Below are positions 21,798 to 57,360 of a DNA stretch of 64,000 nucleotides, piece by piece. Position numbers and translations under genes: made by a program. The stretch's first letter is position 1. Every line of letters begins with the position of its first letter. The stretch is from Escherichia phage naswa: the sequence record MN850595.1; one strand, 5' to 3'. The notes beneath the pieces are model-generated. The model saw only the letters and a program-made list of their open reading frames with translations, made no database searches and was not told the DNA's origin.

Positions 21798-24575
21798 ATG
21801 AGCATGTGGTCGTTCGATTTTGAGTCATCCGGTTTGCTGGAAGACCCAGATCTTTATTATCACTGCGGTCTGTTTAAAGAGCTGAATAAGAACCGTTTTA
21901 TGCTGTTCCTTCCTCTAAATGACCGCACACACTACTCCGGGGAGGATATAGAAAAGGCTAAGAACTTCATTCTGGCAAAGAAAACTCTTTATAAAGATTT
22001 TGAAGTTCGCATAGCAGATTTTTCGGAGTTGGAAGGTTGGCTTACAGGCAATTCTGACTGGTCACCAACAGCTTTGAACTGCCATAACTGCTACAGTTAT
22101 GACTTTATGCTGATGGAAAGATTATCCGGTATTCATTTTGATATGTTCCGTGATCCTAAATGCATGGGGACTATCAACGACCACCAGGTTAACCTGTTTG
22201 ATACGTTGGCGATGAGCAGAATCTTGTGGCCTGATCGCCCTTTACCAAAAGGTTGTCCGGACTCTGTATTCAACCCGGTTACTAAGAAAATGCAGCCTGT
22301 TGGTCCTCACGGCCTTATGGCATGGGGCTACGCCCTTGGTAACCAGAAAGTTCAAATTGATGACTGGCGCGATCTTCCGTTGTGGAAGTATGTGGATCGT
22401 GTATTCGAGGACGTTATCATCCAGGAGCTGCTCTGGAAAGAGCTGGTAGCGGAATCAAAAGGCGTATTCTACGGCAAATCTGACATGCAGAACTTTATGT
22501 ACGATCCAGCCAAAGAGAAGCCGAAAGGGTTCAAGAAAATCACCTGGAAGAACGCATTACGCCGAGGCATGCTGCAGCACTTCCTGATGGAGCTGCAGGC
22601 CCGTCAGGGTGTGTATTTCGACATAGATGGGGCTATTGCCTTACGTGACCGTTGCGATGCGTGGATGAAAGAGATCGCTGATCGTGTTGAACCTCAACTT
22701 CCTTTAAAAGAGTTGTCAATGTCTCAGCGGCCCAAGTTCCCTGAAAAGCCGTTTAACCAAGACGGGACAATCTCCAATAATGGTTGGAAATGGTTAAAAG
22801 ATAAGCTTGGCTATCCTGTAGACATGAGCGCTTTAGAATTCAAAGCCCCGCCTAAGCGAGCATTTACCTCCACAGGAGATGTCAGCAAGATGGGGATAAA
22901 ATGGTGCGAAGAGATGGGCTGCAAAGACCCCGACAAGATGGCTGATTTCTTGAGAGGTTATATTAAGGGCACCTCCACACCACAACCTTTACCTAAAGAG
23001 CTGATGGATCAGGCAATAAGTGATCTGCAGCAGAAGCGAATGCCTGACTGCAAGATACCTATGAAAATCAGCAATCAGGACGACATTAAGCGATACCTGA
23101 TCAGTGCTGGTTGGCTTCCGACAATGTGGAGAACTAAGGATGTAACTAAGGACAGCAAGAAGAAAGCTCTACCTGATGCAGATGTTGATGCACGAGTATA
23201 TGCATACATGGACGAGCTTTTAGAGTCAGAGTATTGTGACCTAATTATCAACTTCTGGAACAAAACTGATGCTAAGTTTCAGACAACAGTGCACAAGTTC
23301 CGAAGCTTTCCTAACTCCGAAAGGATTAAAAAGGAAGTGTTCGGGAAAATACGCAGAAAAGCCAGGGCACTTATTACTTCTCCGCAACTGAAAGATACGT
23401 TTGGACACCTATGTCCGAATCTTGAAAAATTGAACGGAGAGATGGCTAAAGATATCGTCTTGTGGTTATCATTGCGAAACCGCAGATCGGTCCTTGATCC
23501 AATCAAGGAGGATAAGGTTGATACTGGTCTTCTTAATCACCCACGTTTGAAGATTGACCATAAGCTTCCTGCTAAAAGCTCTGGATTAACAAACACTTCC
23601 CGACAGAAACACAGTATTTGTGCAAACATGCCTAAACCATCTCCTAAAGTGGTTATGGGTAAAGAGATGCGTAGCTTGTGGGGTGTTCCTCCTGGATACT
23701 TTGAGATCGGTATTGACGGGTCCAACTTAGAGCAGCTTATCGGGGCTTGGGGTGCCTTTGAGTTCGACAACGGCTTGTACTATGATGTTGTAAGTAACGG
23801 AGACGCACACCAAAACAATGCTGAAGCATATACAAAAGTAGCAGGCAGAGAGGTGTCTCGTAACGACGGTAAACCTATCACGTATGGGGTTATGTACGGG
23901 GCACAAAAAGATAAAGTTGCAGATATGCTGGATATCTCCCCAGAGTTGGGGCAAAGGGTGATCGATGCACTTTGGGATGCCAACCCCGGTCTTAAGGGGC
24001 GCAAAGAGGATCTGGAGAAATTCTGGGAAGCAACAGGTAAGAAGTTTATCTACTCTTTTGATGGTCATGCTATCTGGACCCGATCTAAACACTCTTTACT
24101 TAATGCATACCAACAAAATGGTGGTGCATCGCTGTGTGACTTAGTTGGGATACTCATGCACCACCAAATGGTGAAGCGTGGGTGGTACGATGAAGGTGTC
24201 CGTCGTATTATCTATTACCATGACGAATATCAGCTTCAAGTGCCTGACACACCGAAGTATAAGACTGTGTACACCTTCGACACAATTGAAGAACTGGAAG
24301 CATTTAAGGCAGAGCAGGAAGCCAAACTTCATGTGTTCGACGGTCATAAGTACAAAAAGGTACGCAAGGATGAGGACGGAAACGAAGTGGTTGACAGAGA
24401 CGGAAACACGGTGTACGATCCTATCCTGAACGATGACGGAAAGCTTGAACTTATCTGGAGCCCTGTGGGTGAAATGGTGGTGCATTGCTTCTGGCAAGCT
24501 TCTAAAATGATGGGAGTCCCGTTCCAGATCACAGGTGAATACTTGTGTGGTCGTAATTGGGGTGATTGTCACTAA
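21798..24575 (+). CDS. DNA polymerase, family A, with 3'-5' exonuclease
   Basis: Exo I 'FDFE'; Pol A motif A 'DGSNLEQL', motif B 'RNDGKPITYGVMYG', motif C 'YYHDE'. Confidence 0.85.
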   Translation: MSMWSFDFESSGLLEDPDLYYHCGLFKELNKNRFMLFLPLNDRTHYSGEDIEKAKNFILAKKTLYKDFEVRIADFSELEGWLTGNSDWSPTALNCHNCYSYDFMLMERLSGIHFDMFRDPKCMGTINDHQVNLFDTLAMSRILWPDRPLPKGCPDSVFNPVTKKMQPVGPHGLMAWGYALGNQKVQIDDWRDLPLWKYVDRVFEDVIIQELLWKELVAESKGVFYGKSDMQNFMYDPAKEKPKGFKKITWKNALRRGMLQHFLMELQARQGVYFDIDGAIALRDRCDAWMKEIADRVEPQLPLKELSMSQRPKFPEKPFNQDGTISNNGWKWLKDKLGYPVDMSALEFKAPPKRAFTSTGDVSKMGIKWCEEMGCKDPDKMADFLRGYIKGTSTPQPLPKELMDQAISDLQQKRMPDCKIPMKISNQDDIKRYLISAGWLPTMWRTKDVTKDSKKKALPDADVDARVYAYMDELLESEYCDLIINFWNKTDAKFQTTVHKFRSFPNSERIKKEVFGKIRRKARALITSPQLKDTFGHLCPNLEKLNGEMAKDIVLWLSLRNRRSVLDPIKEDKVDTGLLNHPRLKIDHKLPAKSSGLTNTSRQKHSICANMPKPSPKVVMGKEMRSLWGVPPGYFEIGIDGSNLEQLIGAWGAFEFDNGLYYDVVSNGDAHQNNAEAYTKVAGREVSRNDGKPITYGVMYGAQKDKVADMLDISPELGQRVIDALWDANPGLKGRKEDLEKFWEATGKKFIYSFDGHAIWTRSKHSLLNAYQQNGGASLCDLVGILMHHQMVKRGWYDEGVRRIIYYHDEYQLQVPDTPKYKTVYTFDTIEELEAFKAEQEAKLHVFDGHKYKKVRKDEDGNEVVDRDGNTVYDPILNDDGKLELIWSPVGEMVVHCFWQASKMMGVPFQITGEYLCGRNWGDCH

Positions 24576-50770: not shown

Positions 50771-50846
50771 TCGGTCTCCTGTCTTGTTAAGATGAAGGTA
50801 TTATTTCACACAGGGTTGGCGTTGTCAACACCTGTGTGCAAGAAAA

Positions 50847-51242
50847 TTACTGAAACAGTGCGGATAAATTACCTTCTGGTGGGAACTTATCTGCCAAAAA
50901 CGGTGTTAGCACAGTAGCCTTCTGAAGATCTGGGGTCCACTCGTTGTTCAGAACATCCCAGTAGTACGCAATGTTGCTGTGTGGGTGCCGCATTACGAAC
51001 TTTTTCCCTTCGTAGTCATCTGAAACCTCTACAGAAGAAATAACAACAGAATCTTCAAGGGTTTCTTCATAGAAAGATCCGCCTTCAAATTTCCAACGAG
51101 ATGCAAGAGCCCCTGCCTTGAACGCTGCAGATAACGGACTGTCGGCAAGAACATACATTTCTTGCACTCTGTCGCTGCGATCTTTGCTTCTTACGTTGTA
51201 TACAGTATCTGAGCTATACTCAACACGGTATAGGCTTACCAT
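50847..51242 (-). CDS. hypothetical protein, paralogue of 53054..53452
   Basis: 131 aa; shared 'HP.S...YW......WTP' segment. Confidence 0.5.
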   Translation of the reverse strand: MVSLYRVEYSSDTVYNVRSKDRSDRVQEMYVLADSPLSAAFKAGALASRWKFEGGSFYEETLEDSVVISSVEVSDDYEGKKFVMRHPHSNIAYYWDVLNNEWTPDLQKATVLTPFLADKFPPEGNLSALFQ

Positions 51243-51601
51243 TACCGCACCTCCTCAATAACTTCCACATCTGAACCCACCACAAATGCAAAAGGACAGG
51301 TTTCATGAAAGACATCCGGATCTCCGCCAAGCTTGCTAACAATTTCTCCACCACTAATAAACACAAGCTCACCGATATTCATCAGATTGCTGAAATAGTA
51401 CCCATAATGATTAAAGAATGCAGCAGGGTCAGGTAGACTAGTAGCCTCAAGCACTACATCGGTTGAGGTTACTTTCTTATCATAACCTCTCGCCTTTTGA
51501 GATGCAAGATCTGCAGAATCCTCAGGAGACCGGAGATGCACAGGAATTGTTTCACCAATAAAGCGTACTTTCATATTATCACCCAACAACCATAGCTTCA
51601 A
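51242..51601 (-). CDS. hypothetical small protein
   Basis: Track ORF 119 aa; ends '...DVEVIEEVR'. Confidence 0.5.
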   Translation of the reverse strand: MKLWLLGDNMKVRFIGETIPVHLRSPEDSADLASQKARGYDKKVTSTDVVLEATSLPDPAAFFNHYGYYFSNLMNIGELVFISGGEIVSKLGGDPDVFHETCPFAFVVGSDVEVIEEVR

Positions 51602-51933: not shown

Positions 51934-52203
51934 TTATTCCTCTACAATCTCATACACATCAGGAGTTACAATCAACTCTTCTCCATTACCAGGTGCAACA
52001 AACACCACCAAACCCTCAGGTGTGTGCTTTTTAGCCATCTCGATAACATCTTCTCGCAGAGCTGGCTCCATCAGATCAAAACCTTCACCCAGGGCATCAC
52101 GAACCACCTTCATATAGTCCACTGGTTGTGCTTCAACAATCATGCCTTCAACCAGACCACAATTTTTGTCTGCCAGCTCAGTTTTGAATAATTTAATTTT
52201 CAT
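51934..52203 (-). CDS. hypothetical small protein
   Basis: Track ORF 89 aa; MKIKLF start, '...YEIVEE' end. Confidence 0.5.
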   Translation of the reverse strand: MKIKLFKTELADKNCGLVEGMIVEAQPVDYMKVVRDALGEGFDLMEPALREDVIEMAKKHTPEGLVVFVAPGNGEELIVTPDVYEIVEE

Positions 52204-52340
52204 TTAGAGGTCTCCTCAATTATTTGATATTAATAGCCGTAACCTAACACATTAACTACAACTGCGATTGCAAACATAATTTCAAAGCATGCAATCTCTA
52301 CATTTGGGACTAATTTCTTAATCACACCCATTGTAGCACC

Positions 52341-52661
52341 TCATTCTCCAAAGTCAATCTTTACTTTGCCTTTCCCCTTACCTTTCTTTCCACCGCATTT
52401 AGCCAGCTGACGTGCTGCAACATCTACCATACGGTCAGTTGCCTCGTAAGCATCACTGCCTTTAGCCTTGGCAATAACTTCTTTTCCAGAATTGTCAAAA
52501 ATGAACGCCATAACTTCCTGGTGATCATTTTCAACTTTTACACTCACACGTGCATAGTTAACAGAGGGATGTAAACGCTCCAGCTTGGACATTTTGCGGG
52601 AAATAAAAGATACCATACCTTCTGTGATTTCTACATTGTTGCCAGTGATTTCAATTTGCAT
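52341..52661 (-). CDS. hpf: ribosome hibernation-promoting factor (HPF/RaiA family) homologue
   Basis: 'MQIEITGNNVEITEG' N-terminus and 'ARQL(A)K' C-terminal motif as recalled for bacterial HPF; ~100 aa; Lys/Gly-rich tail. Confidence 0.7.
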   Translation of the reverse strand: MQIEITGNNVEITEGMVSFISRKMSKLERLHPSVNYARVSVKVENDHQEVMAFIFDNSGKEVIAKAKGSDAYEATDRMVDVAARQLAKCGGKKGKGKGKVKIDFGE

Positions 52662-52745
52662 AACGTGTTCCTTTTAAGGAAGAGGGAATAACTATCTCTC
52701 TTTGAAAACAATGATACTAAATCTGAAGCGTTGTGTCAACAGTTT

Positions 52746-53053: not shown

Positions 53054-53452
53054 TCAGTTTAGCTTTTCTTCAACAACCCCATAACTTGGGGCAGAGTCAA
53101 GAGCTTTCTGGTTTAAAAGTGGCGTAGCAGAATCTGCAAACGGTGTCCAAGTTTTTGTTCTGGCATTCCAGTAATGCTTCACTCTGGAATCTGGATGCAC
53201 TATAACAAAAACTTTTTCACTTGTCAACACATTAATTTCTTCTACACCCTTGCTGATAATTTCTCCGTCATAGCCCCCAGTCTGGTATCCTTCGTACCAG
53301 GTTCTTGCATAGGCATAGCCAGCCTGCCAGCATGCAGCCTCCTCCGAGGTGGAGACTACGTAGAAGTCTTTCTCAAATTCCGGAATACGCCCTTGCTTTA
53401 CGCTCCAAGCTCCGCGAATTTTCATTGTTACTTTGAAAAGCTTGTTCTTCAT
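53054..53452 (-). CDS. hypothetical protein, paralogue of 50847..51242
   Basis: 132 aa; 'VHPDSRVKHYWNARTKTWTP'. Confidence 0.5.
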   Translation of the reverse strand: MKNKLFKVTMKIRGAWSVKQGRIPEFEKDFYVVSTSEEAACWQAGYAYARTWYEGYQTGGYDGEIISKGVEEINVLTSEKVFVIVHPDSRVKHYWNARTKTWTPFADSATPLLNQKALDSAPSYGVVEEKLN

Positions 53453-53453
53453 A

Positions 53454-53708
53454 CTACCGCTCTACAATCTCTACATCTGTTCCTACACCGAAGGCATAGT
53501 AATGTTCTTCCCCAAAGTAATACTTGGGGACACCCGCTTTGATCAGATCTAACCCGCGAATAAATACCACACCGTGTGATACAGTGGAATGCTTCTGACG
53601 CACAGGATCGTTGTCAGGCAACCATTCAAAGTACACCGCAGGTACAACCTTTCCCTTCAGGAAGGATTGTCCCAAGTAGACGTTAGAATCAAGAATTTTA
53701 ACCTTCAT
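53454..53708 (-). CDS. small protein, MKVK family
   Basis: 84 aa; MKVKIL start, 'VFIRGLDLIKAGV' core, '...DVEIVER' end. Confidence 0.55.
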   Translation of the reverse strand: MKVKILDSNVYLGQSFLKGKVVPAVYFEWLPDNDPVRQKHSTVSHGVVFIRGLDLIKAGVPKYYFGEEHYYAFGVGTDVEIVER

Positions 53709-53925
53709 TCTCGTCCTCCACTATCTCTACATCCTCACCAAGGGCAAAGTTGTAGGTCCACTGGCTGTCAAAGCAGTCCTGAGATGCACCAGCGGCAATA
53801 AGATCTGCACCTTTTATTTTTAAAAGGTCAGGATAATCTTCGTTAGGGATAGCGGTAAACACTTTCCCCACTAAGGGCTCCTGACCAATATAGAAGCTTG
53901 AATCTAAAACTTTAACTTTCATCAA
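53698..53925 (-). CDS. small protein, MKVK family
   Basis: 75 aa; MMKVKVL start, 'LKIKGADLIAAGA' core, '...DVEIVEDENEG' end. Confidence 0.55.
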   Translation of the reverse strand: MMKVKVLDSSFYIGQEPLVGKVFTAIPNEDYPDLLKIKGADLIAAGASQDCFDSQWTYNFALGEDVEIVEDENEG

Positions 53926-54997: not shown

Positions 54998-55281
54998 TTT
55001 CTAGTCCTCTTCTTAGATTTTTGGGGAGAAACGCTTTCTGCAATACGAGACAGACGTTCTTCTGAAGCCTTACCTACTCCAGGTTTTTTGAGTGGATTAT
55101 CTTTATGACCACAATCCAACTGGATATTGGATACCTCTCCAACTTTGTAAGTCAATTCTAGCAAAAGGTTGTCGTCCTTGTCAAATGTTTTTACGATAAA
55201 TTTTTTATCGTTCTCCTGAACTTCATATCTGGTACCTGCAGTATACAGCATGGTGCCATCAGCATAGGATATCCAAATCAT
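54994..55281 (-). CDS. hypothetical protein
   Basis: Track ORF 95 aa; ATGA overlap. Confidence 0.5.
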   Translation of the reverse strand: MIWISYADGTMLYTAGTRYEVQENDKKFIVKTFDKDDNLLLELTYKVGEVSNIQLDCGHKDNPLKKPGVGKASEERLSRIAESVSPQKSKKRTRK

Positions 55282-56826: not shown

Positions 56827-57360
56827 CTACAAATGGCAACTGAGGGTGTCAAGAAAATTATCCCGTTCTTTCTCAGAGTTTTCATGGGTGTAGCTGAAAA
56901 ACATATCGAGAATAACCTTATTGATATATTCCAGCTCCTCTGTGTTCAGATGCTTAGCAGGATCTACAATGACATCCCAAATATCATACAGACCACACTC
57001 ATGATACCCATAACGCCACTCAATTGTCAAGCTGAGCGGCAAATCTTTACCGTCACAAACAACCTTCCATCTACATATGTTGGTATCTGGTCGTATCTGT
57101 GCACGGTACACCTGTACAAAATCCAATTTGAATTTGAGGTACTCGTCATACAATTTAAGCACAAAGCTCTCGATTTGTGGAGACACTTTTGCAGCAAACT
57201 GTGCGTATTTGTACTTGCACTGGATGATCTTTCTGCGTTTTGCAGTTAAATTTTTTGCCGCCAGTTGTTCTTCAGTGTATCTCCACCTACGATCAACAAA
57301 CGCAACAGGGTCTTTGTCCCCATAGAGGTCTTCCCAGTTAATCAGAAGCATACCTGTCAC
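56827..57360 (-). CDS. hypothetical protein
   Basis: Track ORF 177 aa. Confidence 0.5.
   Translation of the reverse strand: MTGMLLINWEDLYGDKDPVAFVDRRWRYTEEQLAAKNLTAKRRKIIQCKYKYAQFAAKVSPQIESFVLKLYDEYLKFKLDFVQVYRAQIRPDTNICRWKVVCDGKDLPLSLTIEWRYGYHECGLYDIWDVIVDPAKHLNTEELEYINKVILDMFFSYTHENSEKERDNFLDTLSCHL

Follow-up and report, generated by a model that had tools for sequence, protein, structure and literature searches.

The HPF gene and its product

The window, by which we mean the whole 64,000-nucleotide stretch of Escherichia phage naswa that was analysed, carries a homologue of the ribosome hibernation-promoting factor (HPF) on its minus strand. The gene lies at 52341..52661 and is an open reading frame running from ATG to stop, encoding a protein of 106 amino acids that reads MQIEITGNNVEITEGMV...ARQLAKCGGKKGKGKGKVKIDFGE. 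The protein divides into two parts. Residues 1-90 (52392..52661, minus strand) correspond to the folded HPF/RaiA domain, as defined by an AlphaFold2 model and its Foldseek matches. Residues 91-106, encoded together with the stop codon by 52341..52391 on the same strand, form a Lys/Gly-rich tail (GKKGKGKGKVKIDFGE) that is predicted from the pLDDT values to be disordered. Upstream there is a Shine-Dalgarno-like AAGGAA sequence (52668..52673, minus strand), read directly from the sequence 6 nt before the ATG, and a promoter scan places a sigma-70-type promoter in the intergenic region at 52711..52739 (minus strand). The latter comprises TTGACA and TATCAT separated by 17 nt, with 11 of 12 matches. 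The gene can be assigned as the orthologue of rV5 ORF144/gp139 and of magaca_17.

The features on which the first-pass annotation had based its assignment are all found in the protein. Its N-terminus, described there as nearly identical to that of bacterial HPF, matches E. coli HPF at 12 of the first 15 residues (MQLNITGNNVEITEA). The conserved ARQL(x)K motif is ARQLAK in the phage and ARQLTK in E. coli HPF, and the Lys/Gly-rich tail is present in the 106-residue protein. The tail raises the pI, which is 9.0 for the phage homologue compared with 6.5 for E. coli HPF.

Membership of the HPF/RaiA family

The phage protein belongs to the HPF/RaiA family. The homology that had been proposed is supported by profile, pairwise, PDB-sequence and predicted-fold matches alike, and the similarity greatly exceeds what chance would give. 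The profile search that had been suggested as a check gives scores above the cut-off for both family models: 56.7 bits (E=4e-15) for Pfam PF02482 (Ribosomal_S30AE), where the gathering cut-off is 23.7 bits and profile positions 1-83 of 88 are covered, and 56.8 bits (E=2.5e-15) for TIGR00741 (HPF/YfiA family), where it is 40.9 bits. When all PDB sequences are searched the best matches are the E. coli HPF entries 2rql, 4v8h and 6h4n (E ~1e-15). There is no second Pfam domain in the 106 amino acids, and the C-terminal dimerisation domain of the long HPFs is absent.

An AlphaFold2 model built on an alignment of 76 sequences has a mean pLDDT of 85, with values of 86-96 for each block of ten residues over residues 1-90. 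The predicted elements run in the order beta-alpha-beta-beta-beta-alpha, comprising beta1 (residues 2-8), alpha1 (14-30), beta2 (34-44), beta3 (47-56), beta4 (61-68) and alpha2 (71-90). Comparison of the model with the PDB using Foldseek returns HPF, RaiA or pY structures for every one of the top 35 matches. The best are to the HPFs of V. cholerae and E. coli, with TM scores of 0.78-0.82 normalised to the query and 0.86-0.94 normalised to the target, and rmsd = 1.1-1.6 Å.

Where does the protein lie within the family? Over 92 residues it is 43% identical to E. coli HPF, and its identity to E. coli RaiA is 25%. Its scores fall below the cut-offs of both equivalog models, at 65.2 bits against 125 for the E. 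coli-type short HPF (NF007780), and 22.8 bits against 158 for RaiA/YfiA (NF007654). Given the latter score and the 25% identity, the RefSeq product name 'RaiA' carried by rV5 gp139 is a family-level label only. In these comparisons the core is nearer to short HPF, while the extension in length is RaiA-like with an unrelated sequence.

E. coli short HPF (YhbH; PDB 2rql, 6h4n and 6y69) shares with the phage protein its fold, the 43% identity (over residues 1-92), the N-terminus, and K23, K26, D70, Y72, D75/76, the R83/84-Q-L sequence and K87/88. The phage protein differs from it in being 11 residues longer, in a one-residue insertion (D56) in the beta3-beta4 loop, and in the replacement of T53, K80, K89, K93 and H95. 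Its gene lies outside any rpoN operon, and promotion of 100S particles was not seen. With E. coli RaiA (YfiA, protein Y) it shares the domain family, the fold and a C-terminal extension past helix alpha2, and the lack of 100S stimulation is likewise RaiA-like behaviour; yet the phage tail is basic and Lys/Gly-rich where RaiA ends in an acidic sequence (EEVEEE).

Other phages carry HPF-family genes, such as those of PHROG 8990 and the HPF of Cronobacter phage GAP32. They have in common with the present gene the Pfam domain and a large myovirus genome, but fall into a separate PHROG: the naswa protein is assigned to phrog_12469 (E=1e-69) and matches phrog_8990 only at E=1e-7. In the tree of Mizuno et al. 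2019 (PMC6375957) GAP32 HPF falls elsewhere, implying that it was acquired independently.

Ribosome contacts kept and lost

We built an alignment of the phage proteins, E. coli HPF and RaiA, and 139 cellular representatives taken from an exhaustive HMMER search, and mapped onto it the contacts described in cryo-EM studies of short HPF and YfiA. The structural core is well preserved. M1, I5, T6, G7, T13, K23, L27, V39, E44, G59, A64, D70, Y72, D76, D80 and Q85 are all kept, and the phage protein is identical at 20 of the 29 columns that are conserved in the family.

The contact residues are kept in part. K26, R29, D75, R83, K87 and K91 (HPF numbering) are retained; position 29 is glutamine in E. 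coli HPF and arginine in the phage, and is basic in 81% of homologues. Three of the four basic contacts common to E. coli HPF and YfiA (K80, R83, K87 and K91) are present. R83, whose equivalent in the phage is R84, contacts m4C1402 in the cryo-EM structures. Together with Q84, K87, D75 and K26, which we regard as the most diagnostic contact residues, it is kept in both clades of phage protein described below.

Other contacts have been replaced, for the most part by residues that are rare or absent at these positions in cellular homologues. T53, which contacts m2G966, is phenylalanine in the phage (frequency 0.00 among the 139 cellular representatives) and arginine in the divergent clade. K80 is replaced by valine (0.12), R33 by serine (0.04) and K89 by glycine (phage G90; 0.01). 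At the C-terminal end K93 becomes G94 of the phage protein (0.01) and the terminal H95 becomes G96 (0.02). In the cryo-EM structures R33 and K93 contact the E-site tRNA, and H95 stacks on G693. The contact positions as a set are no better conserved than the remainder of the protein: the two phage clades agree at about 12 of 22 of them, compared with about 65% identity for the protein as a whole.

The last of these changes lead into the tail. The C-terminal segment of HPF is supplanted in the phage by a 16-residue Lys/Gly extension that is predicted to be disordered. A Gly-Gly pair at residues 90-91 is followed by KKGKGKGKVKIDFGE, so that positions 93 and 95 in HPF numbering are glycine and lead into a (KG)n tail. 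Confidence in the model is low from residue 91, with pLDDT <50 for residues 91-104, and residues 90-106 carry a charge of +3.8. The detail of the tail sequence is not conserved, since the divergent clade ends in KYSKSKGIDKRTAKWDY, which is different but also basic. Within the group there is also variation in length. The G/A tract that encodes the tail (52344..52391; GGGGAAAGG) has 1-nt indels giving shorter tails in Murica (99 amino acids), in APCEc02 (101 amino acids) and in protein P0003; the indels may have arisen by genuine slippage or through errors in sequencing homopolymers. Two structural observations from cryo-EM studies bear on where such a tail might lie. The C-terminus of helix alpha2 of HPF points along the path of mRNA through the E site, and the longer tail of RaiA runs towards the site of RMF.

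Distribution, selection and origin

By its sequence the window can be assigned to an rV5-like phage of the genus Vequintavirus. Over the 3.5 kb surrounding the gene, identity is 99.9% to Escherichia phage magaca and 90% or more to about 118 further rV5-like records. How general is the gene among these phages? We find it by tblastn in about 117 phage records together with one bacterial record, which is about equal to the 118 records that carry the DNA polymerase of the genus at an identity of at least 90% (in the window the polymerase gene lies at 21798..24575 on the plus strand). No phage record outside the rV5-like group has the gene in tblastn searches with E up to 1e-3, and it was not detected by tblastn in the other genera of the Vequintavirinae, in which the polymerase is 50-58% identical. 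IMG/VR adds only two further rV5-like loci. The gene behaves as a core gene of Vequintavirus.

Copies of the protein that are 100% identical to that of the window occur in slur16, navn, MaxBurger, A51.2 and others. The rV5 orthologue (gp139; YP_002003641, ABI79209) is 97% identical, and has the same genomic position, promoter and tail. It differs at R22/H and V34/A, and by a one-residue indel such that the window has GNNVEIT, as in E. coli HPF, where rV5 has GNVEIT. This indel at codons 8-9 (52635..52640) is polymorphic in the group, GNNVEIT occurring in about 20 records besides the window and Murica, and GNVEIT in rV5 and most others; according to a cryo-EM study, position 8 contacts the 16S rRNA in some species. 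Between the window and rV5 the gene has ten synonymous and two non-synonymous changes, corresponding to dN/dS ~0.05. It is under strong purifying selection, which, with its retention in the divergent lineage described next, speaks for a functional gene.

A more divergent lineage, known only from assemblies (contigs of 124-137 kb), encodes a 103-amino acid orthologue of 64-66% identity with the same genomic position and neighbours as in the window. Relative to the window gene pS is 0.83, so that synonymous sites are saturated, and pN is 0.24. Its loci, on contigs of 39-125 kb, keep the gene order around HPF, and a 137 kb contig also carries the protein. Of a 5 kb query about 28% aligns with this lineage, at about 77-83% DNA identity, and no isolate of it is among the collected phages; at NCBI one of its HPF copies bears the label 'RaiA [Escherichia coli]'.

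Among cellular proteins, short HPFs of the Enterobacterales type come closest, at about 38-44% identity. In an exhaustive HMMER search covering 1.84 billion representatives no cellular protein exceeded about 44%, and no close donor was found. The transfer is thus an old one. Its source was probably a gammaproteobacterial host, and the gene has since become a conserved one in the genus. The search also picked up a protein of 1160 amino acids, encoded on a 363 kb contig, that resembles residues 36-82 of the phage HPF in eight separate stretches (E=5e-9); it seems to be a repeat protein made of HPF-like beta-sheet units.

The annotation of these genes is uneven. In phage records the product is variously named sigma 54 modulation factor, ribosome hibernation (promoting) factor, HPF or RaiA. 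In OR062528, OR062525, OR062530, MT884009 and MT884011 the orthologue is annotated as 'ATP-dependent protease La Type I', which for a 105-amino acid protein with an S30AE domain is an evident mis-annotation. About 18-21 records in the range MG065635-MG065684 ('Campylobacter phage C12, C14, C2, A147 ...') are labelled as phages of Campylobacter jejuni. Both in the HPF region and in the DNA polymerase they are 91-100% identical to Vequintavirus of E. coli, and the host label looks doubtful, reflecting either mislabelling or contamination.

Promoter and gene neighbourhood

The promoter upstream of the HPF gene (52739..52711) is the site annotated as P144 in rV5, and TTGACA is also found upstream of the gene in the divergent clade. 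It is one of five near-consensus sigma-70 promoters with at least 11 of 12 matches between 48 and 58 kb, all of them on the minus, coding strand: 57030..57001, 55184..55155, 53227..53199, 52739..52711 and 50828..50800, each scoring 11/12. Shuffled sequences of the same region contain a mean of 0.24 such sites, and none of 200 dinucleotide shuffles has more than two. Two of the five promoters fall inside open reading frames. A further promoter-like sequence (TTGACT-16-TACAAT with a TG motif, 52357..52330) overlaps the 3′ end of the HPF gene. The 5′ leader was also considered as the site of a regulatory hairpin, which can be discounted as its folding energy is no different from that of shuffled sequences (z = -0.57).

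In the genome paper for rV5 the region appears as a block of 88 open reading frames, most of them small, with host-type promoters. Early transcription by host RNA polymerase is a reasonable inference. On this basis the HPF gene, lying within a long block of small genes, would be transcribed by the unmodified host RNA polymerase from its own near-consensus promoter, and presumably expressed early; a search of the literature found no transcriptome of a Vequintavirus.

The HPF gene is followed immediately by a 33-amino acid hydrophobic open reading frame (MGVIKKLVPNVEIACFEIMFAIAVVVNVLGYGY; 52230..52331, minus strand), which is annotated in rV5 and magaca and absent from the divergent clade. Two genes downstream of HPF lies magaca_15 (51934..52203, minus strand; 89 amino acids), to which many Vequintavirus records give the label sigma 54 modulation factor. 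It is not a second such factor, as it matches no Pfam family and does not resemble the HPF gene. This naming can be traced to an off-by-one error in APCEc02, in which APCEc02_082 received the sigma 54 name and the true HPF, APCEc02_083, was called hypothetical. The historical name 'sigma-54 modulation' reflects the location of the bacterial gene in the rpoN operon; the context of the phage gene lends no support to sigma-54 modulation as its role.

We also considered whether neighbouring small genes might be diverged HPF paralogues, and all-versus-all BLASTP finds none that is related to the HPF gene. Some are related to one another. The minus-strand genes 50847..51242 and 53054..53452 are paralogues (28% identity, E=1e-9), as are 53454..53708 and 53698..53925 (42% identity, E=1e-15), and the C-terminus of the product of 51242..51601 (minus strand) is related to this second pair; all are without a Pfam match. 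ARAGORN finds no tRNA or tmRNA gene in the 64 kb window.

Function of the phage protein

The existence of the gene, its family and its distribution in rV5-like phages are already known, annotated and published. Mizuno et al. 2019 (PMC6375957) listed the copies of rV5, FV3, JES-2013, FFH2 and the typing phages as virus-encoded HPF, and placed the phage copies among gammaproteobacterial sequences. They also expressed rV5 HPF in E. coli from pBAD with arabinose. Its peptides were present in the crude extract and absent from 70S and 100S particles purified under high salt, and the abundance of 100S particles was unchanged. As possible reasons for the negative result the authors gave the growth phase, a loss of binding, or the salt wash. 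A later survey of coliphages noted the hpf gene of the rV5 phages as already described, and we found in the literature no later functional study of a Vequintavirus HPF. The first-pass annotation had suggested that a phage HPF could hold host ribosomes inactive or protect them during takeover. The only published experiment points the other way: absence from ribosomes, which that annotation had named as a refutation, was in part observed, though not decisively.

One reading is the canonical function of a short HPF, in which the phage protein would act with host RMF to promote 100S dimers and so bring host ribosomes into hibernation. The best profile and structural matches are to E. coli-type short HPF over RaiA, and both the N-terminal strand and the motif in alpha2 are nearly the same as in HPF, as this reading would have it. 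Yet expression of rV5 HPF had no discernible effect on 100S particles (PMC6375957), the residues K93 and H95 that contact the E-site tRNA and G693 have given way to the Gly/Lys tail, and the extension, to judge from that of RaiA, would more probably hinder RMF. Moreover, the NF007780 equivalog cut-off is not reached, and a lytic phage has no obvious gain from shutting down all translation. We consider the canonical function to be highly improbable.

The explanation that we favour over the others is binding at the decoding site with an outcome that is RaiA-like or protective, a proposition that we see as evenly balanced. According to this scheme the folded domain would occupy the decoding channel of the vacant 30S subunit or 70S ribosome, overlapping the A and P sites in the manner of HPF and RaiA. 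It would dock by means of the basic face of helix alpha2, with retained contacts from K26, R29, D76, R84, K88 and K92 (phage numbering). Binding would probably be weaker and more salt-sensitive than that of host HPF, because T53, K80, K89, K93 and H95 are replaced. With fewer anchoring contacts the complex should be more salt-labile, which would bring the sequence into line with the failure to find it on ribosomes in PMC6375957. By analogy with the extension of RaiA, the flexible polybasic tail would follow the path of the mRNA in the direction of the RMF site. We expect to find it in the region of the mRNA exit and anti-Shine-Dalgarno sequence, because the C-terminus of alpha2 follows the E-site mRNA path and the RaiA tail comes near the RMF site. 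There it would interfere with RMF instead of cooperating with it. No homologue of RMF was found by tblastn in 50,697 phage records, and thus only the RMF of the host could serve.

The outcome would be that ribosomes are parked or protected as monomeric 70S particles, and not driven into 100S dimers, which fits the unchanged level of 100S (PMC6375957). The phage HPF would at the same time compete with the hibernation factors of the host. The benefit to the phage is more speculative. Vacant ribosomes might be shielded from ribonucleases once the host mRNA has gone, or alternatively the advantage might lie in the competition with host hibernation factors in slow-growing cells. Several observations argue against this scheme. 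Peptides of rV5 HPF were missing from purified 70S and 100S particles despite their presence in the extract (PMC6375957), residues at several contact positions are rare or absent in cellular homologues, the contacts are conserved no better than the whole protein, and the equivalog score is 65 bits against 125.

Alternatively, the fold may have been given a new function off the ribosome. The protein might bind some other ligand, an RNA or a nucleotide, or it might serve as a decoy for host factors or defence systems that recognise HPF-like proteins. The lack of ribosome association although rV5 HPF was expressed (PMC6375957), the substitution of several rRNA and tRNA contacts by residues almost never found in cellular homologues, the new basic tail and the location of the gene among many small uncharacterised phage genes could all be understood in this way. 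There is moreover a precedent in the viral nucleotide sponge Acb4, the fold of which resembles hibernation factors. But R83, Q84, K87, D75 and K26 are kept in both phage clades. The negative ribosome result came from growing cells and high-salt washes, a caveat raised by the authors themselves (PMC6375957), and there is no match to the defence and anti-defence profiles of PADLOC. On balance we think such neofunctionalisation unlikely.

The Acb4 precedent does not extend to kinship. The authors of the Acb4 study noted that its fold resembles V. cholerae HPF (4HEI), and this anti-CBASS sponge (SPO1 gp1.3, PF13876) is, like the phage HPF, a small phage protein with an alpha/beta fold. However, Acb4 is a tetramer without the N-terminal beta1 strand topology, and is related to the phage HPF neither by sequence or profile nor among the top-ranked folds. 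The phage HPF has no PF13876 match at E up to 1, where the SPO1 gp1.3 control scores 35.5 bits. BLASTP gives no alignment, hhalign a probability of 0.9%, and the top 50 fold matches include no Acb4-like structure. Membership of the Acb4 family can be rejected.

A further explanation, offered by Mizuno et al. 2019 (PMC6375957), is that the protein is an anti-hibernation factor. In starved cells it would compete with host HPF, RaiA and RMF and then dissociate easily, freeing dormant ribosomes for the phage. This overlaps with the RaiA-like, decoding-site proposal set out above, but it predicts the release of ribosomes and not their parking. The loss of contacts, which implies weaker binding, fits well, as do a tail overlapping the RMF region, the host-type promoter and the gut habitat of rV5-like phages. 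Against it, a weaker binder could displace tighter host factors only if present in large excess, and while bound the phage HPF would itself block the A and P sites. We regard this explanation as improbable.

Taken more broadly, there is a tentative case, which we would not put higher than possible, that the phage HPF is a phage-adapted antagonist of host hibernation, or has some other new function, and is not a promoter of hibernation. As an antagonist it would combine weakened contacts at the decoding site with a polybasic tail in the region of the mRNA exit and RMF, so that 100S formation is blocked or host factors are displaced. In the alternative version the protein would have left the ribosome for a new ligand.

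Our analysis adds to the published description a residue-level account of what is kept and lost relative to host HPF, the signs of strong purifying selection, the conserved host-type promoter and the exclusion of an Acb4 sponge. The gene itself is not thereby new, and these additions serve to sharpen the experiments that would be worthwhile. The wider interest lies in phage genes that act on the translation apparatus, where the question is what a lytic phage gains from a homologue of a hibernation factor. If the antagonist version is true, ribosomes would stay available to the phage in slow-growing E. coli of the gut.
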